The notes beneath the pieces are model-generated. The model saw only the letters and a program-made list of their open reading frames with translations, did not search any database and had not been told where the DNA came from. Below, one piece after another: positions 26,475 through 60,698 of a DNA stretch of 64,000 nt. This DNA comes from an uncultured bacterium (lineage in GTDB: Bacteria > Auribacterota > Erginobacteria > Erginobacterales > CAZKCI01), in the NCBI GenBank assembly GCA_964584165.1, contig CAZOYW010000007.1, forward strand, positions 32,886 through 96,885, given 5' to 3'. A program made the position numbers and the translations under genes. The number at the start of each line of letters is the position of its first letter. Position 1 is the stretch's first letter.

Positions 26475-26560
26475 CGGCCGAGACGACGGGCGGTAGGCCG
26501 TTTCCCCGCCTCCGCCCTGCGGGCTACGGCGGACGGGTGTGAACCGGCGCCCCAGGACGC

Positions 26561-26620
26561 CCGATCGCACTTGTCCGCCAGAGCCCGAAGGGCGACGGCG
26601 GAGATCGGGCCTAGAGGCGG
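26561..26620. repeat. 60-bp structured repeat (CCGCCAG-GCCCGAAGGGC-GACGGCGG nested hairpin), copy A
   Basis: Roughly 93% identical to 58991-59050, which lies inside the nfnB/gltD-like gene. Confidence 0.7.
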
Positions 26621-30287: not shown

Positions 30288-30292
30288 AGCCC

Positions 30293-41360: not shown

Positions 41361-41396
41361 TTTATGCGTATCCCTTTGCTAATCAACCAGATTCCG
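41361..41396. repeat. 36-bp direct repeat R1 (tttatgcgtatcc...caaccagat.ccg), 3' of the RSD gene
   Basis: 30/36 identical to R2 at 42818-42853. Confidence 0.6.
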
Positions 41397-41435
41397 TGGT
41401 CCGACTACATGTTCGATATCTCTAGATATTACTCC

Positions 41436-42482: not shown

Positions 42483-42599
42483 TATTCAATTCCACCTTGG
42501 ATCCCTGGATTCGATAGCTTATTCCTTACTGGTGAAGATAGCTTTGAGAACAAAACAGCTACAACATCACCTCCAATGCATTCTCTTGCTTCAACCTGT

Positions 42600-42790
42600 C
42601 AATGAGCTCTAGGCGGGGGGCCTGGATATTCCCCTTCGGCGGGAAGTGGAGCCCCGCACCATTTTTACGCCTCAATGCGAAACTCTAAGCGAAGTGCCCT
42701 TGGCCAATCTATCGCCGCAGAAGACCGGGGCACAAGCCGAAGGGTCGACCGAGCGGATCCGCTTAGGCCGGCCTTTGAGCAAGACGCTGC
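42600..42790 (-). pseudogene. degraded 3' fragment of a GIY-YIG-family paralog (related to the C-terminus of the 47014-47817 gene)
   Basis: The minus strand translates to VLLKGRPKRIRSVDPS... and ...NIQAPRLELIDR. Compare KYIVLLKGRPKRVGPVDSSPKVNIQAPRLALLDRLI in the intact gene. Frameshifts and a stop are present. Confidence 0.5.
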
Positions 42791-42817
42791 TGTTGTTTTG
42801 ACTCCTTTTTATGCGTA

Positions 42818-42853
42818 TCCGCCTGTCAAGCAACCAGATGCCGAAGCCTAACC
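42818..42853. repeat. 36-bp direct repeat R2, immediately 3' of the PHP-SMC ATPase gene
   Basis: See R1. Confidence 0.6.
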
Positions 42854-42863
42854 GCGCATTTAT

Positions 42864-45845
42864 CTATCCAGCCTCGCCTAAAATATGTTTCCACTGTAAT
42901 CGGTAACGCCGCTCACGTTCTAAAAATGCACGTTCCCCTCCCTCTAGAATCCCGCACACCGTCGTCCGGATATTCGGGTTTTCAAGCGACCCGCTCTGAT
43001 ATTTAATGTGTGGAAGAGTGCCGTCTATACTCGGAGTGGCAGTTGCAATAATCACCTGATCCGCATCCGTATTAACGACCAAGTTGGCATTGTGAGTTAC
43101 GATAATTACCTGTCGGCGCTTACGTACTTGACGAAAGTGCGGTACCAAATCATCGAAAACTGATTTGGGATCAAGATTCTCCTCCGGTTGATCTATTAGA
43201 AGGGGGCGCCGGTCGTTGCGATCAATTGCGAGGTATAGCAAAAGAAGCACTATTCCACGCGTACCGGGAGATACCTGTTCAACAACAACCCCATCATACT
43301 CAATCCCATAACGAATTTCGATGTGCTCAGTGCTGTAAAGCCACGCTCCGATCTGGCGAAACCACTCTACCTTTTTCCCGGGTTCGATCGATGAAGGCAT
43401 TGCAGCCTGAATATCATCCGAATGTTTCGCCACGAAATCATGCATAGCCGTCGCCACTTCATCGGGGTTTCCGACGCGCCACGGCGATAAAAGAGCATCC
43501 TTTGTAATGCTGGCCAGTGTGCCGTGCCCTCGAAATGGTGTGTTCTTCCGCAGATCGAGCAATTCTTCCCCAGCCTTAACCCAATCATTGAAACTAACAT
43601 GTCGCCTGACAACAAAACGCATTTTGGCGAGCGCCCCTTGCTCTCCTTCGAGCTCTTTGTGCAACGGCGTATAAAGACGTGCTAGAGCCCGCTCTTCTTC
43701 TGCAAATGTATTGAAAATCGAGCGGTAGGCTTGTCTGCGCGTGGCTCGTAGAGCGCGTAGTCGTTCGTCCGCCCCTTCCCCATTGTCGATCGCGAGGTCT
43801 AGCTTTTTTAGGCTAGTCTCATTCGCTGCAATCGCTCTATTGAGGATGTCATATTTCCTTTGCTTAATCTCGTCACCCCCAACCTGCTTTTTCGCGGCGG
43901 CACGCGCAGATTTCAGCGCGTCGAGCGGCCAAACGTTCAACGGCACTTTCGTAAGATCTAACGGATTAGTAGGGTCGACGCATTGAAGCTTAGTAATCTC
44001 ATTCGCGACTTTGCTTTTAGCTTGGGTGATGATCGTCTCCACATCGCCGGAATATTTTAGCCGGAAATTCCCCCACTCGATTTCAGTAAGACCTGACTCA
44101 GCGAACCTCTCGCGCATTTCAGCCAAACGTTGCGCGGCATCTTGATCGCGAATGAATATCACCTCGGCGAGCAAGTCATCCAAAGCTTTTTGCCTCCGCC
44201 TCAAGCTTTCAACGCGGTTTTCTGCGTCCGTACATGCCAGATCAAGTTCGAGCAACCGCTGGGCTCGTTTTCCAGCATCCTTCGGCAGCAGGTTCTCAAG
44301 ATCTTTGCGAGATTTCTTGAGTTGCACGCCCAAACTATTGCGATCAATTCGGAGCTTGGGCAATTGATCCTGCAACCGCATCTCCATGGCAATTTTCGCA
44401 GAAGCTGTCGCCACACTTTCGATTTGCTGCTGGCGGCGGCGTCTGATCGGTTTCAGCAACAGATCTGCAAGCGCCTCGAAAGATTCGGTTTGCATACGGT
44501 CTACTGGTTCGGTTTGGTCGAAAATCACCCTCTCAATCTCTTGTCGTAGTTCGACGGCAAGCCCTGCAGATGAGCAAAGTTGTTCCACGAACTGCTGTGA
44601 GAGATAGCGCACCTGCGGCATTTCCTCCGTCCATTCGTCGGGTGAACGGAAGGGAGCCAACTTCCTCTCACCATCGGCCCAGACCTCTTCAACTTGAGCG
44701 TCGCCGATGAGATCGTCAGGTGAGGTGGCTCGCCGCAAAAATGAGGATTCACCCAAGTTGTTGCCGATTGCCTGAGCACCGGCGGCAATCATGTCAAGCA
44801 GCGCGGTCTTGCCAGAACCCCGCTCGCCAATGATGCTGATAAGTCCATGGTTCAATTCGATTTCTTTATTGAGGACCCAAGACATGCCGATGGGCTTTAT
44901 GCTCTCGAGGGTAACCGAATCGGGGATTTCAGTCGGAGATCGTTCGCTGATCGAGACTCGTTCTTCCGGCTCAATGACGGCCTGGCGGAGACTCTCAAAT
45001 GCGAGATCGCCCTTGATCCAGCAATAGCGCGCCAAGTCTGGAGCAGCGACACGGTCCAATTGGTGAGCGTCACATCCATGGAGGCAAGGCTTGATTGCAC
45101 CATATCTGCGTTCAATCGCCTTGCGATCCATCCCGGCCTTGAACCCTAGCCAAAAATCATGGTCGGCTTTGTTGCCTGAGAAGATTATATGCGAGAAACC
45201 CTCGATTTCTTGCCGGATAGCGGAGAAGGCATCATCCTCTTGGAGGCCAGAAGTCCCATCACATTTCGAACTTGCGACTGCCACGAGGCAGTTGTGTCGA
45301 ACCCAGGAATCTTCACGAAAAAGACCTCGCAGCTGGTCAAGGGTTACTTTGAACTGACCAACACCTTCTCGGAATGCACCTTCATCATCCGTTTGCTTTG
45401 GATTATACTTGCGGCCCAATGCGATGAGTTCCGAGCGCGCGCATGAATATTTTCGCTCCTTATACTCGAACGTGAGCTTTCCGAGAATTCGTTCAATCTG
45501 CTGCTCGTGATCCAGATCATCAGGAGAAAACAAGAGATGAATATTGATGCCTTTACTTTGCGCGGTCTTGAGCTCAAGCCTCATTTCAATATTTGGGAAA
45601 ATAAGGTCCACTTGAGGCAGCCGGCCCTCAGCTTTATGCGCACAGATTTGCTTATAACTCTGGATGCACAAATAATCCGTGATGCCTATGGCTCGGATGG
45701 TAGGGGATGCATTTTCGATCTTTTCCAGATAACCCTGCCAGGCACCAGCGAACTGATCACCCAGCACGGTTCCCGGTGCATGAATATGGGGGTCCCAGCG
45801 GTGCCATTCTGAACCGCGCAGGCTCCATTTTGGTGTTGCTTTCAT
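42864..45845 (-). CDS. PHP (polymerase/histidinol-phosphatase) domain fused to SMC/RecF/ABC-type coiled-coil ATPase (993 aa)
   Basis: N-terminal WDPHIHAPGT...AIGITDY (PHP motifs). Walker A IIGERGSGKTALL. Roughly 450 aa of coiled coil. C-terminal LLIDQPEENLD (Walker B / D-loop) and VTHNANL (H-loop). GGAGGA RBS; AT-rich upstream region. Confidence 0.8.
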   Translation of the reverse strand: MKATPKWSLRGSEWHRWDPHIHAPGTVLGDQFAGAWQGYLEKIENASPTIRAIGITDYLCIQSYKQICAHKAEGRLPQVDLIFPNIEMRLELKTAQSKGINIHLLFSPDDLDHEQQIERILGKLTFEYKERKYSCARSELIALGRKYNPKQTDDEGAFREGVGQFKVTLDQLRGLFREDSWVRHNCLVAVASSKCDGTSGLQEDDAFSAIRQEIEGFSHIIFSGNKADHDFWLGFKAGMDRKAIERRYGAIKPCLHGCDAHQLDRVAAPDLARYCWIKGDLAFESLRQAVIEPEERVSISERSPTEIPDSVTLESIKPIGMSWVLNKEIELNHGLISIIGERGSGKTALLDMIAAGAQAIGNNLGESSFLRRATSPDDLIGDAQVEEVWADGERKLAPFRSPDEWTEEMPQVRYLSQQFVEQLCSSAGLAVELRQEIERVIFDQTEPVDRMQTESFEALADLLLKPIRRRRQQQIESVATASAKIAMEMRLQDQLPKLRIDRNSLGVQLKKSRKDLENLLPKDAGKRAQRLLELDLACTDAENRVESLRRRQKALDDLLAEVIFIRDQDAAQRLAEMRERFAESGLTEIEWGNFRLKYSGDVETIITQAKSKVANEITKLQCVDPTNPLDLTKVPLNVWPLDALKSARAAAKKQVGGDEIKQRKYDILNRAIAANETSLKKLDLAIDNGEGADERLRALRATRRQAYRSIFNTFAEEERALARLYTPLHKELEGEQGALAKMRFVVRRHVSFNDWVKAGEELLDLRKNTPFRGHGTLASITKDALLSPWRVGNPDEVATAMHDFVAKHSDDIQAAMPSSIEPGKKVEWFRQIGAWLYSTEHIEIRYGIEYDGVVVEQVSPGTRGIVLLLLYLAIDRNDRRPLLIDQPEENLDPKSVFDDLVPHFRQVRKRRQVIIVTHNANLVVNTDADQVIIATATPSIDGTLPHIKYQSGSLENPNIRTTVCGILEGGERAFLERERRYRLQWKHILGEAG

Positions 45846-45970
45846 CTGATAACTATAGTCCTCCAGTTGCTTGTTCGCGATATATTCAGATCCCGAATAT
45901 TGCCCATTGCCATATAATTTCCCCGATATTTACGCTAGGTATAGCTATAATTTGAGGTTATCATCCAATA

Positions 45971-46417
45971 TTACAATTTCTGAATCCATTTCGCGAAATC
46001 GGATTGTGTCTTCTTCCCTACTGCAACGGATCCCCCGCGGGTAAAATGTTTGCTTCCCGCTATCCAAATGTATCCGCCAAAATCAGATGGAAGAAATAAA
46101 TCCCCATATTGAATCATGGCTACCTTTTCTTTCCCGAAATGGCCGAAGAAATAGCCAAACTCAAACATAACATTCAGATTTGGGATGTTCTTTTTCTGTT
46201 TCTTGATTATCGTTCGGGATTCCGGAGAGAAAACAAGCAAGGCTCCTTGCACTTTCGCGCGGATAGAGTCTAGTTCTTCCAGTAAGTTTCTCCCGGGAGT
46301 AAACGCATCCCACCACGGTAAGAAGGAGACAACATTTGAGGTTAAAGCTTTGACAATCGCTTTGGCTTGGGACCTGGCTGCCGACGACGAACCGATGAAT
46401 AGCTTTATTTCTGGCAT
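45971..46417 (-). CDS. TIR-like domain protein (COG4271/PF10137-type predicted nucleotide-binding TIR-like)
   Basis: 148 aa KLFIGSSS...PWWD.F..G...L..L......GALLVFSPE...NVMFEFGYFFGHFGKEKV...LPSD.GG pattern. Confidence 0.55.
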   Translation of the reverse strand: MPEIKLFIGSSSAARSQAKAIVKALTSNVVSFLPWWDAFTPGRNLLEELDSIRAKVQGALLVFSPESRTIIKKQKKNIPNLNVMFEFGYFFGHFGKEKVAMIQYGDLFLPSDFGGYIWIAGSKHFTRGGSVAVGKKTQSDFAKWIQKL

Positions 46418-46530
46418 ATTTGTTCCTCCCTTCCATTGTTTAATTTCAGATATTATTTGAATACGTAGGCCAACGTCCTAACCTACTTTAACCTATCCAT
46501 AAGCGCCGAACGAATGGTATGAATATTCAT

Positions 46531-46896
46531 CTATTTCAGAACAATGGATAGAATACCCACAAGTAGCCCTATAATGCTTGCAATCGCTCCCCAAGTTTGT
46601 AGATTTACATCAATCTCGGGATATTTATCTCTAATATATTTCGCCAATATAATACCTCCAACGCAGGAACCCCCTACAAGAACAAGCAGGAATGCTGTCT
46701 TGATCAATATTGGGCCTATATTATAGCTTGGCAAAGGTGTTCCTAGCGAAGATTCCCAAATGTAGACTATTGGCCGAACAAGTGCTCCATGCCGCGTTGC
46801 AGGGAAAAACACTGCTAATATTAGCAATAATAGCAATACTGCAATTGTGCACAAACATCCAAACTGATCTGTTTTATTAAAATTGCTTCTAAACAT
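46531..46896 (-). CDS. small membrane protein (3-4 TM)
   Basis: 121 aa. Hydrophobic segments CLCTIAVLLLLLILAVFF, AFLLVLVGGSCVGGIIL, AIASIIGLLVGILSIVL. Confidence 0.45.
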   Translation of the reverse strand: MFRSNFNKTDQFGCLCTIAVLLLLLILAVFFPATRHGALVRPIVYIWESSLGTPLPSYNIGPILIKTAFLLVLVGGSCVGGIILAKYIRDKYPEIDVNLQTWGAIASIIGLLVGILSIVLK

Positions 46897-47013
46897 AAAT
46901 ATGCCCTTTTAGTTTCAGCGAGATATGCTCGCTAATATCGACACCGCCTCTGCCAACGTCCTCGACCGCTTCAACCTGTTCATAAGCGTCAGGCAGGGGA
47001 CCTGACTACCTGA

Positions 47014-47817
47014 CTACAGTGCATTTGCCAATGTCTTCGCCCGGATCAGCCGATCCAGCAAAGCCAGGCGCGGGGCCTGGATATTGACCTTCGGCGAGGA
47101 ATCTACCGGACCAACCCTCTTGGGGCGGCCTTTGAGCAACACGATATATTTCCCTGACTTGCGCCAGGGCTTGATCTTCCGGATGCGGCCATAATGGGTC
47201 ACTTGCTTGATGGGCGAGGTAAGGTAAATCGCAAGGTATTTCAGCCTCGGGATGACCCGCTTGGAAAGGCGGATGGCATACCAACGGTTTTTGCCCAGGA
47301 ACTCCTTCTCGAACCCATCCTTGTGAGCCGGGCAGACAAGCGTGTCATACTCCCCTCTTCGCCGGCGGACATCACAGCTTGAAGATACCTTCTTCGGAAC
47401 GCCTCCGGTGATATCAGCCAACTCGCGCCGCTGGGACTGAACGATCCGGCTCTTGAACACCCGGTAAAGATCGCGCGAGGCGGTGATTTTCCCTGAAACC
47501 CGATTCCCTTTGGGCGAGGCTATCCTCAGAACCAGCGACTCAAGCTCCCGCAAATGCTCGTCGCCCTGAGTCAGATAGATGCTGAACCGGTCCCATTCCT
47601 CGGCATGGCGATCCTTGAGGTGGCCATGCAGCCTTGATCGAAGGTTCCGGGCCAGGCCGACGTAGTAGAGGCTATCCCCGGCATAAAGAGCATATACCCC
47701 GCTCTTCCCCCGGGCGAATTCGGTAATGATATCCGGATATCTTTTTATCGCCGTCCGGGCGATGTTCTCCAAATGCTCGACGACGAGCGGGGCTTTCCCA
47801 ATCCGTTTTCTTCTCAC
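47014..47817 (-). CDS. GIY-YIG nuclease-domain protein with ~170-aa C-terminal domain
   Basis: GVYALYAGDSLYYVGLARNLRSRLHGH (GIY-YIG). Cys/His pair CDVRRRRGEYDTLVCPAH. Degraded copies of its 3' end elsewhere in the island. Confidence 0.6.
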   Translation of the reverse strand: MRRKRIGKAPLVVEHLENIARTAIKRYPDIITEFARGKSGVYALYAGDSLYYVGLARNLRSRLHGHLKDRHAEEWDRFSIYLTQGDEHLRELESLVLRIASPKGNRVSGKITASRDLYRVFKSRIVQSQRRELADITGGVPKKVSSSCDVRRRRGEYDTLVCPAHKDGFEKEFLGKNRWYAIRLSKRVIPRLKYLAIYLTSPIKQVTHYGRIRKIKPWRKSGKYIVLLKGRPKRVGPVDSSPKVNIQAPRLALLDRLIRAKTLANAL

Positions 47818-48078
47818 TTGGCATCTCCTTTCACAATCCCAATCGCTTCCTCCGTCAGTTCAAATAGCTCATAATGACCGAACTTGTACAGGCGGGAAGG
47901 TTGCGCTCGAAGACTTCGACCAGGCGTTGGATCTTGTCCGAGGCGGGCATGGTCTATACCGGAGGGTTGTTTATAATCATACAAATCCCCGTTTTCCAAT
48001 TCCATAAGATATTCCATTACATAATATATTCCAGTTCCCCCCTCCCTCCTATTCATAGCCCCCCCCGCCTGCTCCCCC

Positions 48079-48463
48079 TGGGACACTTCCTGTCCGATCG
48101 GACAAGGTTTGTCCACTTTTGATCGGGAATGGAGGATTTCCGGCCCCCCCAACCCAGCATTGATCTGGGACAACTCGTGTCCGATCGGACAGGGTTTGTC
48201 CACTTTTGAGCAGGAATGGAGGGTTTCTGGCCCCCCCAACCCAGCATTGATCTGGGACAACTCGTGTCCGATCGGACAGGGTTTGTCCACTTTTGAGCAG
48301 GAATGGAGGGTTTCTGGCCCCCCCAACCCAGTATCGAGCTGGGACAACTCGTGTCCGATCGGACAAGGTTTGTCCGTTTTTGATCGGGGAACGAGGGCTT
48401 TTCCTGCTCCAAACCCACCCATTGAGTTGGGACAACCCATGTCCGATCGGACATGGGTTGTCC
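48079..48463. repeat. array of five ~87-bp tandem repeats, each containing the perfect palindrome TGTCCGATCGGACA (last unit a perfect 36-bp palindrome)
   Basis: gggacaactcgtgtccgatcggacagggtttgtcca...cccccccaacccagcattgatct repeated. Lies in the divergent region between the GIY-YIG and PaaX-like genes. Confidence 0.85.
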
Positions 48464-48567
48464 CAATGTCGTCTCCTGATGAGTTCATTGCCCTTGAAAT
48501 CTCTGCAAGAAATATCCGTTCAAAAGAGTCCTTATAGTAGGGCGGGCAATGTCCGCATGAGCGCCGA

Positions 48568-49356
48568 TTGCCCCTCCATCGCGGAGACGCGCGGATGCCA
48601 ACCGTTGCCGAAGATATCCTGATGCTCCTCGCCGAGGGAGCGTTCCGGCTCCTGACTTTCCGCTCCCTGTTCACGCTCGACTGGGGGTTCAGCTCTCCGG
48701 CTTATCGCAAAACGATCACCCGGCTCGAAAAAGACGGCGCGGTCCGGCGGGTGCAACATAGACGCGACGTGTATCTTCATCTCACCGATCGAGGCAGAAA
48801 AATTCTGGAACAACGCCGTCCTCCCCCGAGAAAATCCCCGCCGACCTGGGATCGTCTCTGGCGGCTGGTGATCTTCGATATCCCGGAGAAAAGAAACGAG
48901 GACCGCCTTCTGCTCCGTCGGTATTTGACGGCATCGGGGTTCGCAAAAGTGCAAAAGAGCGTTTGGATCGCTCCCTATGACCGCGAAGAACAAGTGCAGG
49001 AGTTCACCCGAAAAATCGATATCCAACGCTATGTATTGCAGCTGACGTTTAAAAAATTCCGCAACCTCGAGGAGCGGGATTTAGCCGCGTCGTTCTGGGA
49101 TATCCAAGGTCTGCAAGTTCGCTACCAGGAACTGATCCAACGCTACGCGAAAAGAATGGCCGTGCTCCCGGCAGGGACAAGGGGGGCGGCGATTGGGCGC
49201 AGACAGTTCTTGAACGATCTGCTCTGGGATTACCAAACTATCCTGGCCTTAGACCCTCAACTGCCGACCGAGCTGCTTCCGGCGAACTGGAGCGGCGCGG
49301 CCGCGAAGCAGTTCGTGAATCGCTGCCGCACCCTTTTCTCCAGCGGCCCTGTGTAG
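48568..49356 (+). CDS. PaaX-family winged-helix transcriptional regulator
   Basis: WDRLWRLVIFDIPEKRNEDRLLLRRYLTASGFAKVQKSVWIAP matches the PaaX C-domain consensus. N-terminal wHTH. The start may be ATG 48595. Confidence 0.6.
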   Translation: MPLHRGDARMPTVAEDILMLLAEGAFRLLTFRSLFTLDWGFSSPAYRKTITRLEKDGAVRRVQHRRDVYLHLTDRGRKILEQRRPPPRKSPPTWDRLWRLVIFDIPEKRNEDRLLLRRYLTASGFAKVQKSVWIAPYDREEQVQEFTRKIDIQRYVLQLTFKKFRNLEERDLAASFWDIQGLQVRYQELIQRYAKRMAVLPAGTRGAAIGRRQFLNDLLWDYQTILALDPQLPTELLPANWSGAAAKQFVNRCRTLFSSGPV

Positions 49357-49385: not shown

Positions 49386-49507
49386 CGGACAACTTCTGTC
49401 CGATCGGACAGGAGTTGTCCCGATGAAACCAGGTTTTCGGGAGGCAGTTTCCCCCTCTTTCATGCTTGGATTTGGGACAAATCCATCCGATCGGACAGGT
49501 TTGTCCC
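49386..49507. repeat. two further 34-36-bp palindromes of the TGTCCGATCGGACA family, 3' of the PaaX-like gene
   Basis: cggacaacttctgtccgatcggacaggagttgtccc and gggacaaatccatccgatcggacaggtttgtccc. Confidence 0.8.
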
Positions 49508-49807: not shown

Positions 49808-50821
49808 ATGAGCAAGCAGCGGACCATCACTATGGACGACGGGAGCGGGTCGCTCTCCTCCCGGGAGCTCCTCCGGGAGAGCGTCCTCCCCTATCTCCGG
49901 AACCCCGTCCTCAACCGGCTGGAGGACGCGGCCCGCTTCCCGGCGGGGGGCGGGGAGTTCGCCTTCACCACCGACGCCTTCGTGGTCTCGCCAATCGTCT
50001 TCCCGGGCGGGGACATCGGGAAGCTCGCGGTCTGCGGGACGGTCAACGACCTCGCCGTGATGGGCGCCCGCCCCCTCGCCCTCGCCTCCGCCCTCATCCT
50101 CGAGGAGGGCTTCCCACGGGCGCTTCTGGAAAGGATCGTCCGCTCGATGGGAATCTGGGCGAAGCGGGCCGGCGTCCGGATCGTCGCGGGCGACACCAAG
50201 GTGGTGGGAAAGGGGAACGCCGACGGAATCTACATCTCCACCTCCGGCGTCGGCCGGGTGATCATGAAAACGCCCCCGGCGGCGGAGCGGATCCGCCCGG
50301 GCGACCGGGTGATCTCAAGCGGGACGGCCGGCGACCACGGCCTGGCGATCCTGGCCGCCCGGGAGAGGCTCGACATCAGCCCCCAGCTCAAAAGCGACTG
50401 CGCTCCCGTGAACGGACTGATGGAGCGGATGGTCAAATCCGGGGCGGAGATCAAGTTCATGCGCGACCCCACGCGGGGAGGGCTGGCCGCGGTACTCAAC
50501 GAGATCGCCGAGGGGCGGGACTGGGGGATCGGGATCGAGGAACGCTCCGTCCCGGTCCATCCCCGGGTTCGGGCGGCGGCCGAGATACTCGGCCTCGACC
50601 CGCTGGTCCTCGCCGGCGAGGGGAGGATCGTGGCCGTCGCCGCCGATCGGGACGCCCGGAGGCTCGTCGCGGCGATGCGGTCGCATCCCCTGGGGAAACA
50701 GGCGGCCGTCATCGGCGGGATCGTCCGCGGGCATCCCGGCCTGGTCTCCCTGAGGACCCGGGCGGGGGGAGAGCGGGTCATGGACTGGCCCCGGGGCGGC
50801 GACCTGCCGCGGATCTGCTGA
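49808..50821 (+). CDS. hypE: [NiFe]-hydrogenase maturation factor HypE
   Basis: AVCGTVNDLAVMGARP, AGDTKVV, C-terminal ...PRIC. Confidence 0.85.
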   Translation: MSKQRTITMDDGSGSLSSRELLRESVLPYLRNPVLNRLEDAARFPAGGGEFAFTTDAFVVSPIVFPGGDIGKLAVCGTVNDLAVMGARPLALASALILEEGFPRALLERIVRSMGIWAKRAGVRIVAGDTKVVGKGNADGIYISTSGVGRVIMKTPPAAERIRPGDRVISSGTAGDHGLAILAARERLDISPQLKSDCAPVNGLMERMVKSGAEIKFMRDPTRGGLAAVLNEIAEGRDWGIGIEERSVPVHPRVRAAAEILGLDPLVLAGEGRIVAVAADRDARRLVAAMRSHPLGKQAAVIGGIVRGHPGLVSLRTRAGGERVMDWPRGGDLPRIC

Positions 50822-50840
50822 GCGGCTTAGCCCGGCGAAG

Positions 50841-50953
50841 AAAACCACGAATCACACGAATCTTCACGAATAGCCCCGCCCCGGCGCGCGGACCTGAAGG
50901 TCCGCGCCTACGGGATCGCGGATTGCGCGAATCAGACTTGGAACGAATTAACC
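50841..50953. repeat. ACGAAT-heptad repeat element (locus B)
   Basis: aaccacgaatcacacgaatcttcacgaat ... gcggattgcgcgaatcagacttggaacgaat. Confidence 0.5.
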
Positions 50954-51845: not shown

Positions 51846-51955
51846 TCTTCGCCCCCGCCCTCCCGGGCGGGGGCGAAGTTCAGGGTTGAACCCTAGCCCG
51901 GTTTATGGATAGGCCATGCATTTCAGCGGAGAGCGCAGTTTGCACAATGTCGCTC

Positions 51956-51986
51956 GTCCCGATCGAATCGAAGATTCGATCGGGGG
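51956..51986. mobile_element. partial copy of the CCCGATCGAATCGAAGATTCGATCGGG palindrome family
   Basis: Same core as 39854-39881. Confidence 0.4.
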
Positions 51987-53026: not shown

Positions 53027-54367
53027 ATGGCGGCGCCGTTCAAGGCTTACGATATCCGCGGAATCTACGGAAAGGACGTCACCGACTCATTGGCCTACGA
53101 CCTGGGGCGGGCCTTCGCGAACTACCTCCCGGGCAAGACGGTCGTGGTCGGGCGGGACATGCGCCCCGCCGGCGAGACCCTGCAGAAAAACCTGGTCCAG
53201 GGGCTGACCGAGCAGGGGGCCAAGGTCATCGACATCGGCTTGGCCTCAACCGACATGTTTTACTTCGCCGTCATCGCGAAAAAGGCGGACGGCGGGGTGA
53301 TCATCACCGCCTCGCACAACCCGGCCCAGTACAACGGCTTCAAGCTGACCCGGGAGAAGGCGATCCCGATCGGGATCGATTCCGGCCTGGCTGAGATCGA
53401 GAAGACCGTCCGCGCCGGCCGCTTCCCGGAAGCGGCCCGGAAGCCCGGGAAGGTCGTGAAGTGCGAGATCTTAGGCGACTTCATCGCCTTCATGCACGGC
53501 TTCGTCAAGCCGAAGGAGCTCGCGCCCCTCAAGGTCGTAATCGACTGCGGCAACGGCATGGGCGGCCTGGTCATCCCCAAGCTGCTCGCGGGGAGCCCGC
53601 TTAAGATCGTCCCCCTCTACTTCGAGCTCGACGGGACCTTCCCCCACCACGAGGCCAATCCCCTCCTGGAGGAGAACCGCCGGGACCTGATCGCGGCCGT
53701 CCTCAAGGAGAAGGCCGACCTGGGGATCGGCCTGGACGGCGACACCGACCGGGCCTTCTTCGTGGACGACACGGGCGCCTTCTGCTCGGCCGATTTCATC
53801 CTCGGCCTGCTCGCCAAGCCGATCCTCCGGGCCCATCCCGGGGCCAAGATCGCCTACGACGTCCGCTGCTCCAACTACGTCCGCGACACCGTGAAGAAGT
53901 ACGGCGGGACGGCCCACATGGGCAAGGTGGGCCACGCTTATGCCAAGATCTTCATGCGCGAGATCGGCGCCGAGTTCGGCGGCGAGGTCAGCGGGCACTA
54001 CTACTACAAGTACCAGGACGCCTTCTTCGACAGCGGGAACCTGACCTGCCTCCTCCTCCTCAAGGTCTTAAGCGAGAAGAAGGAGAAGCTCTCGGCCGCC
54101 TTGGCCGAGACCAGGAACTACCACATCAGCGGGGAGATCAACTCCACGGTCAAGGATCCCGACGCCGCGATCCGGCGGGTCCTGGAGGGCTTCCGGCCCC
54201 GGGGCAGGCTGGTCGAGATCGACGGGGTGTCCGTGATCGGGCCGACCTGGTGGCTGAACGTCCGCAAGTCCAACACCGAGCCCCTGGTCCGGCTGAACTG
54301 CGAGGCCGACAGCAAAGCGAACATGGAGAAGCTCCGGGACGAGGTCCTGACTCTGATCCGGGCCTGA
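53027..54367 (+). CDS. phosphoglucomutase/phosphomannomutase (alpha-D-phosphohexomutase family)
   Basis: AYDIRGIYG; active-site TASHNP; AAAGGAG RBS. Confidence 0.85.
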   Translation: MAAPFKAYDIRGIYGKDVTDSLAYDLGRAFANYLPGKTVVVGRDMRPAGETLQKNLVQGLTEQGAKVIDIGLASTDMFYFAVIAKKADGGVIITASHNPAQYNGFKLTREKAIPIGIDSGLAEIEKTVRAGRFPEAARKPGKVVKCEILGDFIAFMHGFVKPKELAPLKVVIDCGNGMGGLVIPKLLAGSPLKIVPLYFELDGTFPHHEANPLLEENRRDLIAAVLKEKADLGIGLDGDTDRAFFVDDTGAFCSADFILGLLAKPILRAHPGAKIAYDVRCSNYVRDTVKKYGGTAHMGKVGHAYAKIFMREIGAEFGGEVSGHYYYKYQDAFFDSGNLTCLLLLKVLSEKKEKLSAALAETRNYHISGEINSTVKDPDAAIRRVLEGFRPRGRLVEIDGVSVIGPTWWLNVRKSNTEPLVRLNCEADSKANMEKLRDEVLTLIRA

Positions 54368-54380
54368 CGCGGCCGGGAAA

Positions 54381-54510
54381 AGAAACCACGAATCCCGCGA
54401 ATCTTCGCGAATATGTCCGGCTGGGCCCGGCGACCGAAAACGCGGATTAGCGCCGGCCGACCGGCAGGGATTCCACGGATTGATCGCGAACGATTGATCG
54501 CCGCCGGGCT
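54381..54510. repeat. ACGAAT-heptad repeat element (locus C)
   Basis: aaccacgaatcccgcgaatcttcgcgaat ... cacggattgatcgcgaacgattgatcg. Confidence 0.5.
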
Positions 54511-54538: not shown

Positions 54539-57112
54539 ATGCAAAAATGTCGTTGCTTTACCGGTCTGATCGCGCTCGCCGCCCTTGTCCTCGCCGGAAA
54601 GGCGGAAGCGACCGCCTGGCAGACCCAGAACCCCATCCCCACCGCCAACAACTTCAACGACGTTTACTGCCTCCCGGGCGCCCACGTCGTCGCGGTGGGG
54701 AACGCCGGGGCAATCTTCCTCTACGAGCCGGGGGAGGCCGCCTGGCACTATCTGACCTGCCCGCCGGAGGCGAACTACAACGGCGTCTGGGGCGACACTC
54801 CGAATAACATCTACGCGGCCGGGCGCGGCCAGGGCGAATACAGCGACGGGGCGATCTACCACTACGACGGCTCCTCCTGGTCCCAGGTCCATTTCGTCCA
54901 ATACAACCAGATCTACGACATCTGGGGCGCCGACGGCGCCTCGGTCTACGCCGTGGGCGACGGGGGGACCGTCCTCCGCTACAACGGGTCGTCCTGGTCG
55001 GCCATGGACATCGGCACCGCCCAGACCATGCGCGGGGTCTGGGGGCTGGCCGCGAACGACGTCTACGTCGCCGGGAGCGCCAAGGTCCTCCACTACAACG
55101 GATCGAGCTGGTCCGAGATGACCAGCGACTCCTCCGGCGGCTTCCAAGACATCTGGTGCGACGCCGCAAACAACATCTACGCGGTCAAGGACACCGGGAA
55201 GATCTTCCACTACAACGGTTCCACCTGGTCGGTGGCGACCGCGGTCACCAGCGGAGGGTCGAGCGTCTCCCTCTCCGCCGTCTGGGGCGCGGGCGGAGAG
55301 GTCTACGCGACCGGGAGCGGCAATCCGGTGGTAGTCTTCCGCTATGCCTCCGGCTCCTGGGAAGCGATGGAGAGCGGTACCGCCAAGCCCCTCAACGGGG
55401 TGCACGGACTGAACACGGGCGACGTCTACGCCGTCGGAGAAGACGGCAGCGTCGTCCACTACGCCGGCTCCTCCTGGTCCTCCCTCCCGAGATGGAACGA
55501 CAGCAATTTCTACGGCGTCTGGGGCTCCTCGCCCACCGACGTCTTCGCCGTGGGCTGGCGGGCGAGCGGGGCGGGCGGCGTCGTCCTCCACTATGACGGA
55601 ACCGACTGGTCGGAGATGACCATCCCACCCTACGGGACCTTCAACCAGCTCGAAGGGGTCTGGGGATCATCCTCCTCCCAGGTCTTCGCTCTCGGCAACA
55701 AGATCTACCTCTACAACGGCTCCGGCTGGACCGAGCAGACCGAGATCACGCCCGCCCAGGTCTACGCGGCCTGGGGGTCTTCCCCCACCAACGTCTTCGC
55801 GGTCGGCTACGTCGCGTCCTACGAGGGGGGAGTCTTCCGCTACGACGGAGCGAACTGGACCGTCTCGACCGTCATCCCCTACACCCTGCGCGACGTCTGG
55901 GGATCTTCGGGCACCGACGTCTACGCCTGCGGAGACCATAACCAGATCATCCGCTTCGACGGGAACCAGTGGACGGTGCTCACCGACGGCGACGCCGCGA
56001 CCGGCTGGTCCGGGATCTGGTCGGGAGGGAGCGGTTCCTTCTACGCGGTCGGCTCCAACCTGAACAACGACGACCTCCTCCTCCACTACGACGGGGGGGT
56101 CTGGACGCTGAAAAGCGACTTCCACTTCGCCAACTTCAGCCGGATCTGGGGCTCCTCGGACTCCGACCTCTTCGCCGTCTCCACACCGATCGGGACGAGC
56201 GACAAGGTCTGGGGGCGGATCCACCACTACGACGGCCGTTCCTGGGCCGAGTCGCCGACCTACTGGGAGAACGGCTTCAACAGCGTCTGGGGATCGTCCG
56301 GGACCGACGTCTTCGTCGTCGGCGACGGGGGGTCCATCCTCCACTACGGGGGCGGCCGGCTCGTCGCCGAGAAGCCGAATTGGATCTACGACTACGACGG
56401 CGACGGCACCTCGGACATCGCCATCTTCCGGGGGACGAACGGGATGTGGTCGATCCGGAACCTCACCCGGGTCTACCTGGGGAACTCGACCGACGAACTC
56501 GTCCCCGCCGATTACGACGGCGACGGGACGACCGACCCCGCGATCTTCCGGGAATCCGCCGGCCTCTGGTCGGTCCGCTCCCTCTCCCGCTTCTACCTGG
56601 GGGCCACCGACGACCGCCCCGTCCCCGGCGACTACGACGGCGACGGGACAGCGGAGGCGGGGATCTTCCGCCCCACGGCGTCGCTCTGGTCGATCCGGAA
56701 CGTCACCCGGGTCTATCTCGGCGGATCGGACGACGTCCCCGTCCCCGGCTGGTACGACGAGGACGGCGCCAAGGACATCGCCGTCTTCCGGGGAGAGAAC
56801 GGTATGTGGTCGGTGCGAAACCTGACCCGGTTCTACTTCGGGAACTCGACCGACGATCTCGTCCCTGGCGACTACAACGGCGCCGGTTTCTGGGAGGCGG
56901 GGATCTTCCGCCCCTCCTCGTCGATGTGGTCGATCCGGAATGTCACCCGGGTCTATCTCGGGGGCGCGGGCGACTGGGCCCTGCCCGCCGACTACGACGG
57001 CGACGGCGCCGACGACGCCGGGATCTTCCGCGATTCCTCGGGCCTCTGGTCCGTCCGCGACGTTACGCGGGTCTTCTTCGGCTCCAGCGCCGACCTGCCG
57101 GCGACGAGGTAG
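54539..57112 (+). CDS. secreted beta-propeller protein with C-terminal FG-GAP-like DYDGDG repeat domain (paralog 3)
   Basis: Signal peptide. About 14 WG..xxDVYAVGxxGxILHYDGSSWS blades. Seven C-terminal DYDGDGTxDxAIFR...GLWSVRxLTRFYLG modules. Confidence 0.7.
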   Translation: MQKCRCFTGLIALAALVLAGKAEATAWQTQNPIPTANNFNDVYCLPGAHVVAVGNAGAIFLYEPGEAAWHYLTCPPEANYNGVWGDTPNNIYAAGRGQGEYSDGAIYHYDGSSWSQVHFVQYNQIYDIWGADGASVYAVGDGGTVLRYNGSSWSAMDIGTAQTMRGVWGLAANDVYVAGSAKVLHYNGSSWSEMTSDSSGGFQDIWCDAANNIYAVKDTGKIFHYNGSTWSVATAVTSGGSSVSLSAVWGAGGEVYATGSGNPVVVFRYASGSWEAMESGTAKPLNGVHGLNTGDVYAVGEDGSVVHYAGSSWSSLPRWNDSNFYGVWGSSPTDVFAVGWRASGAGGVVLHYDGTDWSEMTIPPYGTFNQLEGVWGSSSSQVFALGNKIYLYNGSGWTEQTEITPAQVYAAWGSSPTNVFAVGYVASYEGGVFRYDGANWTVSTVIPYTLRDVWGSSGTDVYACGDHNQIIRFDGNQWTVLTDGDAATGWSGIWSGGSGSFYAVGSNLNNDDLLLHYDGGVWTLKSDFHFANFSRIWGSSDSDLFAVSTPIGTSDKVWGRIHHYDGRSWAESPTYWENGFNSVWGSSGTDVFVVGDGGSILHYGGGRLVAEKPNWIYDYDGDGTSDIAIFRGTNGMWSIRNLTRVYLGNSTDELVPADYDGDGTTDPAIFRESAGLWSVRSLSRFYLGATDDRPVPGDYDGDGTAEAGIFRPTASLWSIRNVTRVYLGGSDDVPVPGWYDEDGAKDIAVFRGENGMWSVRNLTRFYFGNSTDDLVPGDYNGAGFWEAGIFRPSSSMWSIRNVTRVYLGGAGDWALPADYDGDGADDAGIFRDSSGLWSVRDVTRVFFGSSADLPATR

Positions 57113-57193
57113 CTGGTGGGAGGGGCGTCCCGCCCCGATGGCGAGCCGGGGATCGCGGCGAGACGCCGCTCCCACGGGGCGTGCCCAAAGTCC

Positions 57194-58333
57194 ATGAGCG
57201 CAAAACTCAAGACCCATTTCGCCCCCGCCGAACGGTCGGGAAAGGCCGAGATCGCGCGGCAGGTCCGGGACGTGAGTTCCAGCTCCCTGGTCAGCGGCCT
57301 CCTCGAGACCGCCGCCGGGCTCCTCGCCGTTCTCAACCGCCGCCGACAGATCCTGGCCCTGAACCACGCCCTCCTCGCCGCCCTCCGGGTCCGCGACCCC
57401 GAAGCCGTTCTCGGCCTGAGGCCGGGCGAAGCGATCCGCTGCGTCCACGCGCGGGACATGGCCGCCGGCTGCGGGACGGGGAAGTTCTGCGCCTCCTGCG
57501 GAGCGGCGATCGCCATCGTCTCCTCCCTGAAGAAGCGCCGGCCCGTCGACCAGAAATGCATCCTGACCGTTGCCGGAGGAGGGGAAACCCGCGACCTCTG
57601 CTTCCGAGTAAAGGCCCATCCCTTCCGTGTCCGGAAGGAACCCTTCCTCCTCCTCTTCCTCCAGGACATCAGCGAAGAGGAGCGGCGGGCGGAGCTGGAG
57701 CGAGCCTTCTTCCACGACCTGAAAAACGTCGTCATGGGCATCCAGGGGGCTTCCCAGCTGATGGCGAAGGGGACCGGCGCGGGGATGGCGGATTGGCCGC
57801 AGCAGATCGGCCGGATGGCCTCCCGCCTCCAGGCCGAGATCGCGATCCAGCAGTCGCTCTCCCGGGGGACGCCGGGGAGATACGCGCCCCGGATCGAGGC
57901 GATCCGGGCCGGCGACCTGCTCGCCGAGCTGCGGGAGACCGTCGCCCACCATCCCGCGGCCCGCAAGAAGGTCCTGGTTGTCGGGAAGCCGCTCCCCCGG
58001 CGGCCGTTCCGGACCGACGTTTCCCTCCTCCTCCGCGTGCTCGGCAACATGCTGACCAACGCCTTCGAGGCGACCGAGGAGGGCGGCATCGTCCGCTTCC
58101 GGGCCGAGCTGACGAAGGCCCGGGCGCGATTCAGCGTCTGGAGCCGGGGGGCCATCCCCCCGGCCATCGCGCCCCGAGTTTTCCAGCGCTACTTCAGCAC
58201 CAAGGGGGGGCAAGGGCGGGGGATCGGCACCTACGCGATGAAGCTCCTCGGGGAGGAGTACCTGGGGGGGAAGGTCGATTTTACGTCGTCGCCGGCGAAG
58301 GGGACAACCTTCCGGATCACGCTCCCCGCCTGA
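57194..58333 (+). CDS. sensor histidine kinase with Cys-rich N-terminal sensory domain
   Basis: H-box FFHDLKN. G-boxes GGQGRGIGTYAMKLL. N-terminal CVHARDMAAGCGTGKFCASCGAA. The ORF could instead start at GTG 57116. Confidence 0.7.
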   Translation: MSAKLKTHFAPAERSGKAEIARQVRDVSSSSLVSGLLETAAGLLAVLNRRRQILALNHALLAALRVRDPEAVLGLRPGEAIRCVHARDMAAGCGTGKFCASCGAAIAIVSSLKKRRPVDQKCILTVAGGGETRDLCFRVKAHPFRVRKEPFLLLFLQDISEEERRAELERAFFHDLKNVVMGIQGASQLMAKGTGAGMADWPQQIGRMASRLQAEIAIQQSLSRGTPGRYAPRIEAIRAGDLLAELRETVAHHPAARKKVLVVGKPLPRRPFRTDVSLLLRVLGNMLTNAFEATEEGGIVRFRAELTKARARFSVWSRGAIPPAIAPRVFQRYFSTKGGQGRGIGTYAMKLLGEEYLGGKVDFTSSPAKGTTFRITLPA

Positions 58334-58349
58334 CCCGGCAAATGATTTC

Positions 58350-58541
58350 CACGAATTTACACGAATTTTCACGAATGGGCCCGGGTTAGATCGGGGGCCA
58401 AACTACGAATTGCGCGAATTTCGCGAATTACCTTTGGGATGATCCGAGGACTGGGCTGATCGCGATTGTTGGCATGTTGGCGAGTTATAACTCTGCTAGA
58501 TTACGTTCATATTCTAATTCGCGTAATTCGCGCAATTCGTA
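58350..58541. repeat. ACGAAT-heptad repeat element (locus D): 3 + 3 direct heptads, then 3 inverted heptads, flanking an AT-rich core
   Basis: ccacgaatttacacgaattttcacgaat (exact 10-bp period); ctacgaattgcgcgaatttcgcgaat; ...attcgcgtaattcgcgcaattcgtag. Confidence 0.6.
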
Positions 58542-58551
58542 GTTCCCATTC

Positions 58552-60051
58552 ATGAGCCAAACCAAGAAAACAATAATCCCCCGCCAGAGAATGGCGGAGC
58601 AGGAGCCGCGGAAGCGGATCGGAAACTTCCGCGAGGTCCCCTTCGGCTTTACCCCCGAGCAGGCCCGCCTCGAGTCCGCCCGCTGCCTTCAGTGCAAGAA
58701 CGCCCCCTGCCGGAAGGGCTGCCCGGTCGAGGTCGATATCCCCGCCTTCATCCGCGAGATCGGGGAAGGCCGGACCGCCGAGGCCGCCCGGACCATCCTT
58801 AAGACCAACTCCCTTCCCGCCGTCTGCGGAAGGGTCTGTCCCCAGGAAGACCAGTGCGAGAAGCTCTGCCTGCTGGGAAAGGTCTCTTCCCCGGTGGCGA
58901 TCGGGGCGCTGGAGCGTTTCGCGGCCGACGCTTCGGCGGGCGGCGATGTAGCGGCGCCCGATCGCAGATCGGGCCTACAGGCGGCCTCGACCGATCACGC
59001 TTGTCCGCCAGGGCCCGAAGGGCGACGGCGGAGATCGGGCCTACAGGCGACGGATGCGCGCGCAGGCCGAAAGGTCGCCGTGATCGGAGCGGGGCCGGCG
59101 GGGCTCACCGCCGCCGCCGACCTCGCCCGGCTGGGCCACCGCGTCGTCCTCTTCGAGGCGCTCCACGAGGCGGGCGGGGTGCTGGTCTACGGCATCCCCG
59201 AGTTCCGCCTCCCCAAGGAGATCGTCGCCCGGGAGGTGGAGAACGTCCGGAGGCTCGGCGTCGAACTCCGCCTCGACCAGGTGGCGGGGAGGACCGTCAC
59301 CCTGGACGATCTCCGGGCGGAGGGGTTTCAGGCCTTCTTCATCGCCACCGGCGCCGGTCTGCCTTCTTTCATGTCCATCCCGGGCGAGAACCTGGTCGGC
59401 GTCTACTCCGCCAACGAATACCTCACCCGGGTCAACCTGATGAAGGCCTTCCGCTTCCCCGATTACGACACGCCCGTCGCCCGCGGGAGGCGGGTTTGCG
59501 TCGTGGGGGGCGGCAACGTGGCGATGGACTCCGCCCGCACCGCGCGGCGGCTCGGGGCGGAGTCGGTCGCGATCGTCTACCGCCGGACCCGCGACGAGAT
59601 GCCGGCCCGGAAGGACGAGATCCACCACGCCGAGGAGGAAGGGGTCGCTTTGCGCCTCCTCACCCTCCCCGTCCGCTACCTCGGAGACGGGAAGGGGCGG
59701 CTCCAGGGGATGGAGTGCCTGAAGATGGTGCTCGGCGAGCCGGACGATTCGGGGCGGCGGCGGCCGCTCCCGGTCCGCGGCTCCGAGTTCCGGCTCGAAT
59801 GCGACCTGGCGGTGGTGGCGATCGGGAACGACCCCAACCCCCTCCTGGTCCGTTCCGTCGCGGGGCTGAAGCTGGGGCGGAAGGGGAACGTCGAGATCGA
59901 TCCCGGGACCGGGCAGACCTCCCTCCCCGGGATCTTCGCCGGGGGGGACATCGCCACCGGGGCGGCGACGGTGATCGAGGCGATGGGGGCGGGGAAGCGG
60001 GCGGCGAAGGCGATCGACGCCTACCTAAAAACAGTAACCGAAGAAAAGTGA
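58552..60051 (+). CDS. NfnB/GltD/SudA-type NAD(P)H oxidoreductase (glutamate synthase small-chain family) with in-frame repeat insertion in the linker
   Basis: N-terminal 2x Fe-S Cys clusters CLQCKNAPCRKGCP and CGRVCPQEDQCEKLC. VAVIGAGPAGL and VVGGGNVAMD dinucleotide-binding motifs. Confidence 0.8.
   Translation: MSQTKKTIIPRQRMAEQEPRKRIGNFREVPFGFTPEQARLESARCLQCKNAPCRKGCPVEVDIPAFIREIGEGRTAEAARTILKTNSLPAVCGRVCPQEDQCEKLCLLGKVSSPVAIGALERFAADASAGGDVAAPDRRSGLQAASTDHACPPGPEGRRRRSGLQATDARAGRKVAVIGAGPAGLTAAADLARLGHRVVLFEALHEAGGVLVYGIPEFRLPKEIVAREVENVRRLGVELRLDQVAGRTVTLDDLRAEGFQAFFIATGAGLPSFMSIPGENLVGVYSANEYLTRVNLMKAFRFPDYDTPVARGRRVCVVGGGNVAMDSARTARRLGAESVAIVYRRTRDEMPARKDEIHHAEEEGVALRLLTLPVRYLGDGKGRLQGMECLKMVLGEPDDSGRRRPLPVRGSEFRLECDLAVVAIGNDPNPLLVRSVAGLKLGRKGNVEIDPGTGQTSLPGIFAGGDIATGAATVIEAMGAGKRAAKAIDAYLKTVTEEK
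58966..59050. repeat. 60-bp structured repeat copy B (plus 19-bp flanking duplication), in-frame inside the nfnB/gltD-like gene
   Basis: ccgatcacgcttgtccgccagggcccgaagggcgacggcggagatcgggcctacaggcga, flanked by agatcgggcctacaggcgg. Encodes RRSGLQAASTDHACPPGPEGRRRRSGLQATDA. Confidence 0.75.
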
Positions 60052-60082
60052 TCAGTAATCAGTTACTGATCACTGATCACTT
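60048..60082. terminator. GTGATCAGTAA-TCAG-TTACTGATCAC hairpin overlapping the nfnB stop; convergent-gene terminator-like
   Basis: Perfect 12-bp stem. Same motif as 23414-23463. Confidence 0.55.
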
Positions 60083-60091
60083 CTTTCGCTT

Positions 60092-60538: not shown

Positions 60539-60582
60539 TTCTTCCCTCCTATATCCGCCGCGACCTGACCGGCCGATTATTT

Positions 60583-60698
60583 CCACGGATTGACACGAAT
60601 TTTCACGAATAGATACTATCAGGCCCAACGCTGAATATTCGTGCAAATTCGTGTCAATTCGTGGACAGCAGTCGCCGAGCCATTCGCGGAATTCGTGG
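60583..60698. repeat. ACGAAT-heptad repeat element (locus E): 28-bp arms in inverted orientation plus extra heptads
   Basis: ccacggattgacacgaattttcacgaat ... attcgtgcaaattcgtgtcaattcgtgg ... cattcgcggaattcgtgg. Confidence 0.6.

Follow-up and report, generated by a model that had tools for sequence, protein, structure and literature searches.

The window, a 64,000-nucleotide stretch of contig CAZOYW010000007.1 from an uncultured bacterium of the Auribacterota, contains a gene for NfnB, the homotetrameric GltA-type NADPH oxidoreductase (58552..60051, plus strand; 499 aa), which hosts palindromic repeats in its interdomain linker (residues ~130-172). These repeats are best read as a cluster of GTAG-tagged repetitive extragenic palindromic (REP) units inserted in-frame in the linker, and a probability of roughly 0.78 is given to this reading. 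A sequence-only reading of the window had reported two copies of a 60-bp nested-hairpin element, copy B within this gene and copy A in non-coding DNA, and had proposed a small mobile element family tolerated in-frame. The present analysis supports a small dispersed palindromic repeat family with one member tolerated in-frame in the NfnB linker, and it adds three features to the earlier description: the GTAG tag, a short "empty" form of the unit (58956-58978) and a third, inverted copy (26493-26548). On this reading, the gene offers a datable case in which REP-type palindromes would first have colonized and then remodeled a coding linker of a core redox enzyme in an uncultured lineage. Four states found in orthologues (empty, doublet, duplicated and long-loop) would represent the steps.

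Anatomy of the repeat units

Both copies of the element, B at 58991-59050 and A at 26561-26620, are present in the window. Their identity is high, as had been claimed, but 5 of 60 positions differ, so the figure is 55/60 or 92% and not ~93%. Two exact occurrences of the 27-nt core CCGCCAGRGCCCGAAGGGCGACGGCGG were counted in the window, where shuffles predict 0.00. The nested fold proposed earlier is correct as far as it goes, but it leaves out an outer stem, (G)CCCGATC/GATCGGG(C), within which it lies. Read on the minus strand, each unit consists of GTAG, the 8-bp stem GCCCGATC, a loop and GATCGGGC. The units exist in two forms. The short form has a loop of 3 nt, and the long form, represented by copies A and B, has the 3 nt plus a 33-nt self-complementary inner hairpin in the loop. 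The stem of the long form is 7-8 bp and the units measure 23-61 bp.

Two units stand in nfnB. Unit 1 (58956..58978, minus strand) is a short-form GTAG REP, GTAG-GCCCGATC-tgc-GATCGGGC, with a perfect 8-bp stem and a 3-nt loop. Unit 2, which is copy B (58989..59049, minus strand), is a long-form GTAG REP with the tag GTAG and a 36-nt loop, and reads GTAG-GCCCGATC-[T CCGCC GTC GCCC TTC GGGC CCT GGCGG ACAAG]-CGT-GATCGGtC on the minus strand. On the plus strand its parts are the left arm (G)ACCGATC (58989-58996), the loop ACG (58997-58999), the inner hairpin (59000-59032), the right arm GATCGGGC (59033-59040), the tag CTAC (59041-59044) and the tail AGGCG (59045-59049). The inner hairpin module (59000..59032, plus strand), CTTGT-CCGCC-AGG-GCCC-GAA-GGGC-GAC-GGCGG-A, spans 33 nt or 11 codons and is absent at the same place in a 91% identical orthologue. 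DNA alignment with the related contigs L002 and L003 identifies an orphan GTAG tag (58948..58951, plus strand) as what probably remains of hairpin 1 of an ancestral REP doublet. In these relatives the tag is followed by the 21-nt hairpin GCCGCCYCTGYGAGGCGGCGG, which the window lacks at this place.

Copy A (26559..26620, minus strand) is intergenic and ends 18 nt before the start codon, at 26638, of a gene assigned to the App1 family from PF09949. It reads cTAG-GCCCGATC-[T CCGCC GTC GCCC TTC GGGC TCT GGCGG ACAAG]-TGC-GATCGGGC on the minus strand, its tag having degenerated to CTAG, one base off. Unit 1 is the short form of copy A, the bracketed 33 nt (11 codons) being the sole difference. A pattern search identified a third, diverged long-form copy, A' (26493..26548, plus strand), which is inverted relative to copy A and reads GTAG-GCCGtTTC-C-CCGCC-TCC-GCCC-TGC-GGGC-TAC-GGCGG-ACGGG-TGT-GAACCGGC. 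It follows the same plan as the other units; its outer-stem bases differ and have changed on both arms. The inner-architecture pattern CCGCCnnnGCCCnnnGGGCnnnGGCGG has three exact matches in the window (four with at most 2 mismatches), the third at 26506-26532, compared with 0.10 expected. Copies A, B and A', a copy from a Lentisphaerae metagenome-assembled genome (MAG; contig L006) and the short units align position by position in a register alignment.

A' and A together form a head-to-head doublet (26493-26614) like a REPIN (REP doublet forming hairpin). RNA folding had been suggested as a check. The region 26480-26625 folds as one long hairpin of exceptional stability (-52.1 kcal/mol, z = -5.04, 0/200 shuffles as good), but the single units and the copy-B region are unexceptional relative to G+C-rich shuffles.

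A related core had also been reported at ~41046. It carries 2 mismatches in 16 nt, its flanks are dissimilar and such matches occur at chance level (0.56 expected, at most 3 per shuffle), and it was rejected as a family member.

The host gene and its interdomain linker

The product of the 499-aa open reading frame (ORF) scores 566.8 bits against TIGR01316, for which the cutoff is 471.75. Pfam places Fer4_20 at residues 23-128 and Pyr_redox_2 at residues 174-481; the earlier placement of copy B in the linker between the Fe-S and FAD domains is thus borne out, the FAD/NAD domain beginning at residue 174. The T. maritima NfnB (4ylf_B) aligns with the window protein as two blocks, and its linker measures 15 aa versus 43 aa in the window protein. 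An alignment of 14 homologues, of the kind that had been proposed as a check, indicated that the linker is short in all NfnB homologues of at most 76% identity and is expanded only in the closest relatives (81-100%). Close orthologues either lack the insert or have differing versions of it; the content of the expanded linkers varies and the rest of the protein is highly conserved. The insert-bearing protein, identical or near-identical, was found on several contigs of different assemblies (P0001 on four, P0241 and P0242 on two each), and the insertion is therefore not an assembly artefact.

The in-frame REP units lie in a flexible interdomain linker of NfnB. None of the plus-strand frames of the 60-bp element contains a stop codon. 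The AlphaFold2 model of NfnB, built from the 14-sequence alignment, is poor (mean predicted local distance difference test score, pLDDT, 58.5), and the insert region (residues 121-168) is modeled as coil, with no predicted secondary structure and the lowest pLDDT of the model (26-38). The N-terminal domain is also poorly modeled, and the model therefore lends only weak support to a disordered loop. The six-frame translations of the element, joined, gave no match at E <= 10 in a set of 5.8 billion proteins, a search in which a low-complexity match of ~20 aa is too weak for the method. Odd low-complexity peptides in proteins of MAGs can be REP-encoded and need not be functional.

History of the linker among orthologues

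The orthologues can be arranged as a series by identity to the window protein. At 76% (L034) the NfnB linker has no REP. At 81% (L003/L004) the linker contains GTAG-[GCCGCCTC hairpin]-GGGCGC-[GCCCGATC hairpin]-CTAC, the first hairpin of which reads GTAG-GCCGCCTC-tgt-GAGGCGGC in L003 (10403-10425). At 91% (L002) the L003-type doublet is joined by a second, decayed 33-nt unit, CCGACCACG^GATCGG, which lacks the 33-nt core. In the window (100%), hairpin 1 is missing (21 nt), the orphan GTAG at 58948-58951 remains, and unit 2 has the 33-nt core at the ^ position. Unit 1 is conserved in both L002 and L003. The linker indels across the series are 21, 33 and 33 nt; all are multiples of 3, as expected under selection on an essential reading frame.

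These states suggest the following history. The lineages of at least 81% identity would descend from an ancestor whose linker had received a two-hairpin REP doublet (GTAG...CTAC, 52 nt). A tandem duplication of hairpin 2 (33 nt) would have followed before the window and the 91% relative separated. The lineage of the window would have lost hairpin 1 by a 21-nt deletion, and its unit 2 has the long-loop version. The left arm and loop of unit 2 are orthologous between the window and L002 (11/13 positions). In the right arm and tail, 12/20 positions agree, the window has the family consensus and L002 has diverged. Two scenarios fit unit 2: in the window lineage the core, right arm and tail may have been copied, or transferred by conversion, from a further long-form REP (copy A, for example), or the unit may have been born long, with L002 losing the core and then decaying. 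Tolerance of these events may reflect a flexible surface linker, the lack of a plus-frame stop and selection against lengths that are not multiples of 3.

At orthologous intergenic sites, too, the small palindromes differ between the window genome, L002 and L003. For example, the 857-aa gene is followed by a GTGGGAG-type nested palindrome in the window genome and L003 and by GTAG REPs in L002, and the nfnB stop is followed by a AGTGATCAG palindrome in the window genome and L003 and by a GTAG REP in L002. In addition, unrelated nested palindromes stand upstream of App1 in the relatives. These differences speak for continuing gain and loss of elements within the clade. REP content, which varies between 91%-identical relatives, could be used as a strain marker.

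Census and dispersal of tagged hairpins

Tagged hairpins were counted with a pattern that required GTAG or GTGG and then a perfect stem (8 bp or more) with a 2-5 nt loop, and 100 Markov controls were used. The window contains 6 such hairpins compared with an expected mean of 0.28 (control maximum 3), located at 22274 (-), 31558 (+), 39930 (+), 40076 (+), 50886 (-) and 58956 (-). The first five lie between genes or at ORF ends, and the sixth (58956) is unit 1 of nfnB. Related contigs hold many more tagged hairpins than the window. One of them, L032, has a GTAG-GCCCGATC unit in intergenic DNA (11103-11125), paired head-to-head with GTAG-GCCGCTTC at 11136-11158. This doublet of a GCCGCYTC hairpin and a GCCCGATC hairpin is the same as the doublet in the nfnB linker of L003 (10403-10454).

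The window had no match to Rfam covariance models at the gathering threshold, a scan of viral contigs gave 0 matches, and plasmid blastn gave nothing beyond a 33-nt chance match to a cold-shock gene of Streptomyces.

Comparison with known repeat families

GTAG-tagged REPs have an unpaired GTAG tag (or a degenerate GYRG/GTGG version) next to one end of the stem-loop, and stems of 5-13 bp (Di Nocera, De Gregorio & Rocco 2013, BMC Genomics 14:522, PMC3733652). Their tabulated loops are 2-20 nt, with up to 27 nt reported, and in some families the loops are long and self-complementary with GCGG/CCGC termini (PMC3733652). The elements are mainly extragenic, head-to-head dimers predominate, and in some species the elements insert into small palindromes (PMC3733652). 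Copies in genes are typically dimers or groups that encode 20-30 aa and are probably neutral in flexible linkers (PMC3733652). The units described here share this anatomy in several respects. Unit 1, copy B and A' have the GTAG tag and copy A has CTAG; the short form has an 8-bp G+C-rich stem with a 3-nt loop and the long form a nested self-complementary loop; head-to-head doublets occur; and of the six tagged hairpins counted in the window, five are intergenic or near ORF ends and one is in-frame in a gene. The assignment was made by this anatomy and not by a match of the stem GCCCGATC to any of the 24 published families. In contrast to those families, the host is an uncultured high-GC lineage and nfnB lies outside the DNA-repair genes emphasized in PMC3733652. 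In-frame REPs within genes are an already documented kind of event, to which the NfnB case adds a member.

REPINs, described as mobile units, are pairs of closely spaced REPs in inverted orientation that fold into a long hairpin, and further units are added within or beside those already present (Bertels & Rainey 2011, PLoS Genet 7:e1002132, PMC3116915). A'/A (26493-26614) is such an inverted pair, L003 10403-10454 and L032 11103-11158 are further doublets, and new units stand beside or within existing ones, as in REPIN clusters. Unlike REPINs, the A' and A halves are only ~70% alike by estimate, the doublets of the relatives pair two different hairpins and the nfnB units of the window are in tandem.

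Two other systems were considered. Rickettsia palindromic elements (RPEs), outlined in PMC10969869 and PMC3733652 and grouped by sequence into RPE-1 to RPE-10, occur in-frame in housekeeping genes and also in non-coding DNA; RPE-1 is ~100-150 bp and encodes a conserved peptide, and RPE-4 and RPE-6 are CGTC-tagged. The elements reported here resemble them as palindromic repeats that enter genes in-frame without destroying the host gene and that belong to a family also found in non-coding DNA. However, they are not RPEs, as the tag is GTAG and not CGTC, the units are 23-61 bp, the sequences are unrelated and the host is no intracellular alphaproteobacterium. The 33-nt module in REP loops also resembles small repeats within hairpins in another group, although this likeness is a lead only. 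The small dispersed repeats (SDR) of heterocystous cyanobacteria, reportedly described by Elhai and coworkers in 2008 in a paper cited by PMC3116915, are said to be 21-27 nt repeats found within other repeated or hairpin sequences; their sequences and hosts are different.

Several points weigh against assigning the nfnB cluster to GTAG REPs. First, the 36-nt long loop exceeds the 2-20 nt tabulated for these elements, and also the 27 nt reported as their upper value. Secondly, the nfnB pair is tandem (head-to-tail), which is the rare dimer type in published families. Third, only three long-form units and one short-form unit of the GCCCGATC type were found in ~80 kb of the source genome; the contig was followed for ~16 kb beyond the window (L036, L001), and this extension held no further long-form copies. 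Fourth, with three taxa both a gain and a loss of the 33 nt fit the pattern. Lastly, Pfam scans of 38 window ORFs and of the gene calls of the fetched related loci detected no REP-associated tyrosine transposase (RAYT), the gene that accompanies GTAG-tagged REPs and is flanked by them, and no Y1 or other transposase. As a single-copy gene, a RAYT might be encoded anywhere in a genome. As none was found in the DNA searched, the mobilization mechanism is taken from the literature: a RAYT may disseminate REPs in trans through its action on single-stranded hairpins beside the GTAG tag, with recombination between copies as a second route.

The inner hairpin in unrelated genomes

The 26-nt core of the inner hairpin, GCCAGAGCCCGAAGGGCGACGGCGGG, also has exact copies in MAGs and metagenome contigs that are unrelated to the window genome, and there the flanks are unrelated as well. 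The match lengthens to 29 nt, CCCGCCAGAGCCCGAAGGGCGACGGCGGG, in three MAG contigs (L005, L006 and L007), in which the core lies inside different outer stems. In a Lentisphaerae MAG (L006, a contig also recovered as L015 and L024), the core (2907-2933) is in the loop of a GGCGGGGCC/GGCCCCGCC stem and adjoins a GTAG-GGCGGACC REP. In a gammaproteobacterial MAG it occurs on two contigs (L005 583-609; L007 3095-3121) inside CGGATACGC/GCGTGGCCG. Four further metagenome contexts, soil or freshwater among them, have the exact core with unrelated flanks and a weak or absent enclosing stem (L013/L019, L017, L025, L026), and a fifth (L012) matches over 25 nt. Found in 3 loci among 185,579 species genomes, the core is therefore rare and patchy. 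Rfam searches of L005-L007, around these foreign cores, gave only tRNAs at E <= 1 and two sub-threshold Plastid-ycf2 matches that overlap tRNAs. For the inner hairpin, neither Rfam nor the viral and plasmid collections gave a match. About half of the 21 metagenome matches to a 23-nt pattern were discarded because they are coincidental: they encode CQGPKGDG in a conserved protein that seems to be a zinc ribbon. The exact identity of the core at such distance suggests, from base identity, either horizontal spread or a constrained recognition site, and its recurrence across unrelated bacteria hints at a conserved recognition module within REPs.

It was considered whether the 26-33 nt inner hairpin (CCGCC-AGA-GCCC-GAA-GGGC-GAC-GGCGG) is itself the active unit, independent of the outer REP: a micro-element that enters the loops of pre-existing hairpins and spreads horizontally, or a conserved protein-binding or RNA motif, for example a recognition site for a RAYT-like protein, recruited by different REPs. 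Such a module would explain base-for-base identical hairpins amid unrelated surroundings and enclosing stems, as seen in the Lentisphaerae and gammaproteobacterial MAGs and the four metagenome contexts. In addition, the hairpin is present or absent at one stem position in two comparisons, unit 1 versus copy A and L002 versus window unit 2. We nevertheless regard an independent module as unlikely. Unit 2 of the window departs from L002 in its right arm and tail as well, where it follows the consensus, and copying of a longer tract fits this better than a clean insertion of 33 nt. A' shares the architecture with other loop bases, as ordinary divergence of a long-loop REP subfamily predicts. The module has no Rfam match, and we know of no mechanism for a 33-nt mobile unit. 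Loop sequences common to REP families of different species have, moreover, already been reported (PMC3733652).

Local growth, transposition and adaptation

A local origin would require no mobile element. The linker would have grown by replication slippage or tandem duplication of the 33-nt unit, with the hairpins as a by-product. The units do stand in tandem with a 33-nt period, they are 64% identical in L002 and 82% identical in the window after core removal, and all indels are multiples of 3. However, copies A and A' show these sequences in non-coding DNA at a distance of 32 kb, the intergenic doublet of L032 shows them in a relative, and the GTAG tag and head-to-head doublets are hallmarks of REPs. 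Local growth is thus an improbable account of the repeats as a whole. Slippage probably contributed to the tandem step, without accounting for the dispersal.

The element had also been described as flanked by a 19-bp target-site duplication (TSD). The repeat exists but is 18 bp long (AGATCGGGCCTACAGGCG), and its copies lie at 58966-58983 and 59032-59049, spaced 66 bp (22 codons). On the strength of it, insertion could be envisaged as that of a miniature inverted-repeat transposable element (MITE), with a 60-66 bp element transposing into nfnB and making an 18-19 bp TSD. In favor of this, a 48-bp segment lies between exact 18-bp direct repeats, the 66 bp is missing in full from the 81% orthologue, and excision of one repeat with the intervening DNA restores collinearity. 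The 18-mer, however, is within the element consensus, being its right stem arm, CTAC tag and AGGCG tail. A 1-mismatch version forms the right end of copy A (26602-26619), where the 18-mer occurs once, and the left flank of copy A has nothing similar. The left copy in nfnB belongs to an older REP unit that is common to the window, L002 and L003 and predates the L003 split; the 18-mer is found twice in nfnB because two units stand in tandem. In addition, the second unit of L002 is coreless, and the 66 bp therefore did not arise in a single event. As the 18-mer is element sequence and copy A has no flanking duplication, the TSD reading was rejected, and a MITE-like insertion is very unlikely. Membership among MITEs, which have terminal inverted repeats and a TSD of host sequence, was rejected for the same direct repeat. 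Direct repeats around REP-type inserts should not be taken for TSDs.

An adaptive insertion, in which the additional 22-28 residues (with a Cys and an RRRR run among them) would give NfnB a new function or interaction, is highly improbable. In its favor, the insert is kept in several near-identical strains or assemblies and the flanking catalytic motifs are intact. Against it, the DNA of the insert is 92% identical to a non-coding copy, the content of the segment differs between relatives of 81-100% identity in an otherwise highly conserved protein, and the structure model gives the segment no secondary structure and its lowest confidence.

Other repeats and neighboring features

The sequence-only reading had assigned an insert in hypD (30260-31561) to the same mobile family as the nfnB element. 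The phenomenon is the same, but the in-frame hypD insert (30838-30990) belongs to a different repeat family, GTCATTGCGAGG...GAAGCAATC. It reads GTCATTGC[C/G]AGGACCCCGAGCGGAGCGAGGGGGACGAAGCAATCTC, after which comes a GAGAGATCGCTTCGC segment in inverted orientation. One copy of the insert is present in the HypD orthologues of 69-71% identity (L032, L033), and the window has a 63-nt tandem duplication in which PERSEGDEAISPSRR occurs twice. The hypD insert is older than the nfnB one because it is common to these 69-71% identical orthologues.

CACGAAT-type decamer arrays (e.g. ATTTCCACGAATTTACACGAATTTTCACGAAT) and a 30-nt inverted CGCGAAT pair occupy intergenic DNA of the window, both flanks of nfnB among it. 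Repeats of this kind are located at 58325-58386, 58401-58544, 60558-60689, 11281-11400, 50818-50894 and 54359-54435, and a similar string, "cacgaatacgaagaat", adjoins the core hairpin in the soil metagenome contigs L013 and L019. Palindromic AGTGATCAGTAATCAGTTACTGATCACTGATCACT repeats occur at 23410-23464 and 60031-60085, of which the second overlaps the stop codon of nfnB. In the 81% relative, translation continues through the corresponding repeat, which gives the protein the additional C-terminal residues VISDQ. Nested palindromes of the GTGGGAG or CCCCGATC type (e.g. GTGGGAGCCCCGATCGAATCGAAGATTCGATCGGGG) were found at 24633-24669, 39844-39885, 51954-51985 and ~57113-57185. They have the CCCGATC/GATCGGG stem in common with the nfnB element, and in relatives GTGGGAGGGGCG...CGCCCCTCCCAC versions enclose a CCCCGATCC hairpin (L032 9920-9975).

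A low-GC island at ~40000-48500 (46-51% GC versus 65-72% elsewhere in the window) looks like a horizontally acquired defense island. Three minus-strand genes in it encode a RelA/SpoT-domain protein (41436-42482), a 993-aa AAA/SMC-type ATPase (42864-45845) and a CAP12/Pycsar-type TIR-domain protein (45971-46417). The GTAG REPs at 39930 and 40076 are at its left edge. At its right edge, upstream of a PaaX-like gene with a Cas2-like domain (48568-49356), four tandem 87-88 bp repeats (48078-48470) each contain the palindrome GGACAnnnnnTGTCCGATCGGACAnnnnnTGTCC, a solitary copy of which is at 49387-49425.

The largest direct-repeat families of the window are 120-nt (40-aa) FG-GAP/VCBS-like coding repeats in three large secreted proteins (25751-26443, 29456-30148 and 56389-57081). 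Upstream of the window on the source contig (L036), a palindromic family with CTAG on both sides, CTAG-CCCGRATTATTCR-loop-YGAATAATYCGGG-CTAG, is represented by two copies 5.8 kb apart (1949-1998 and 7762-7814).

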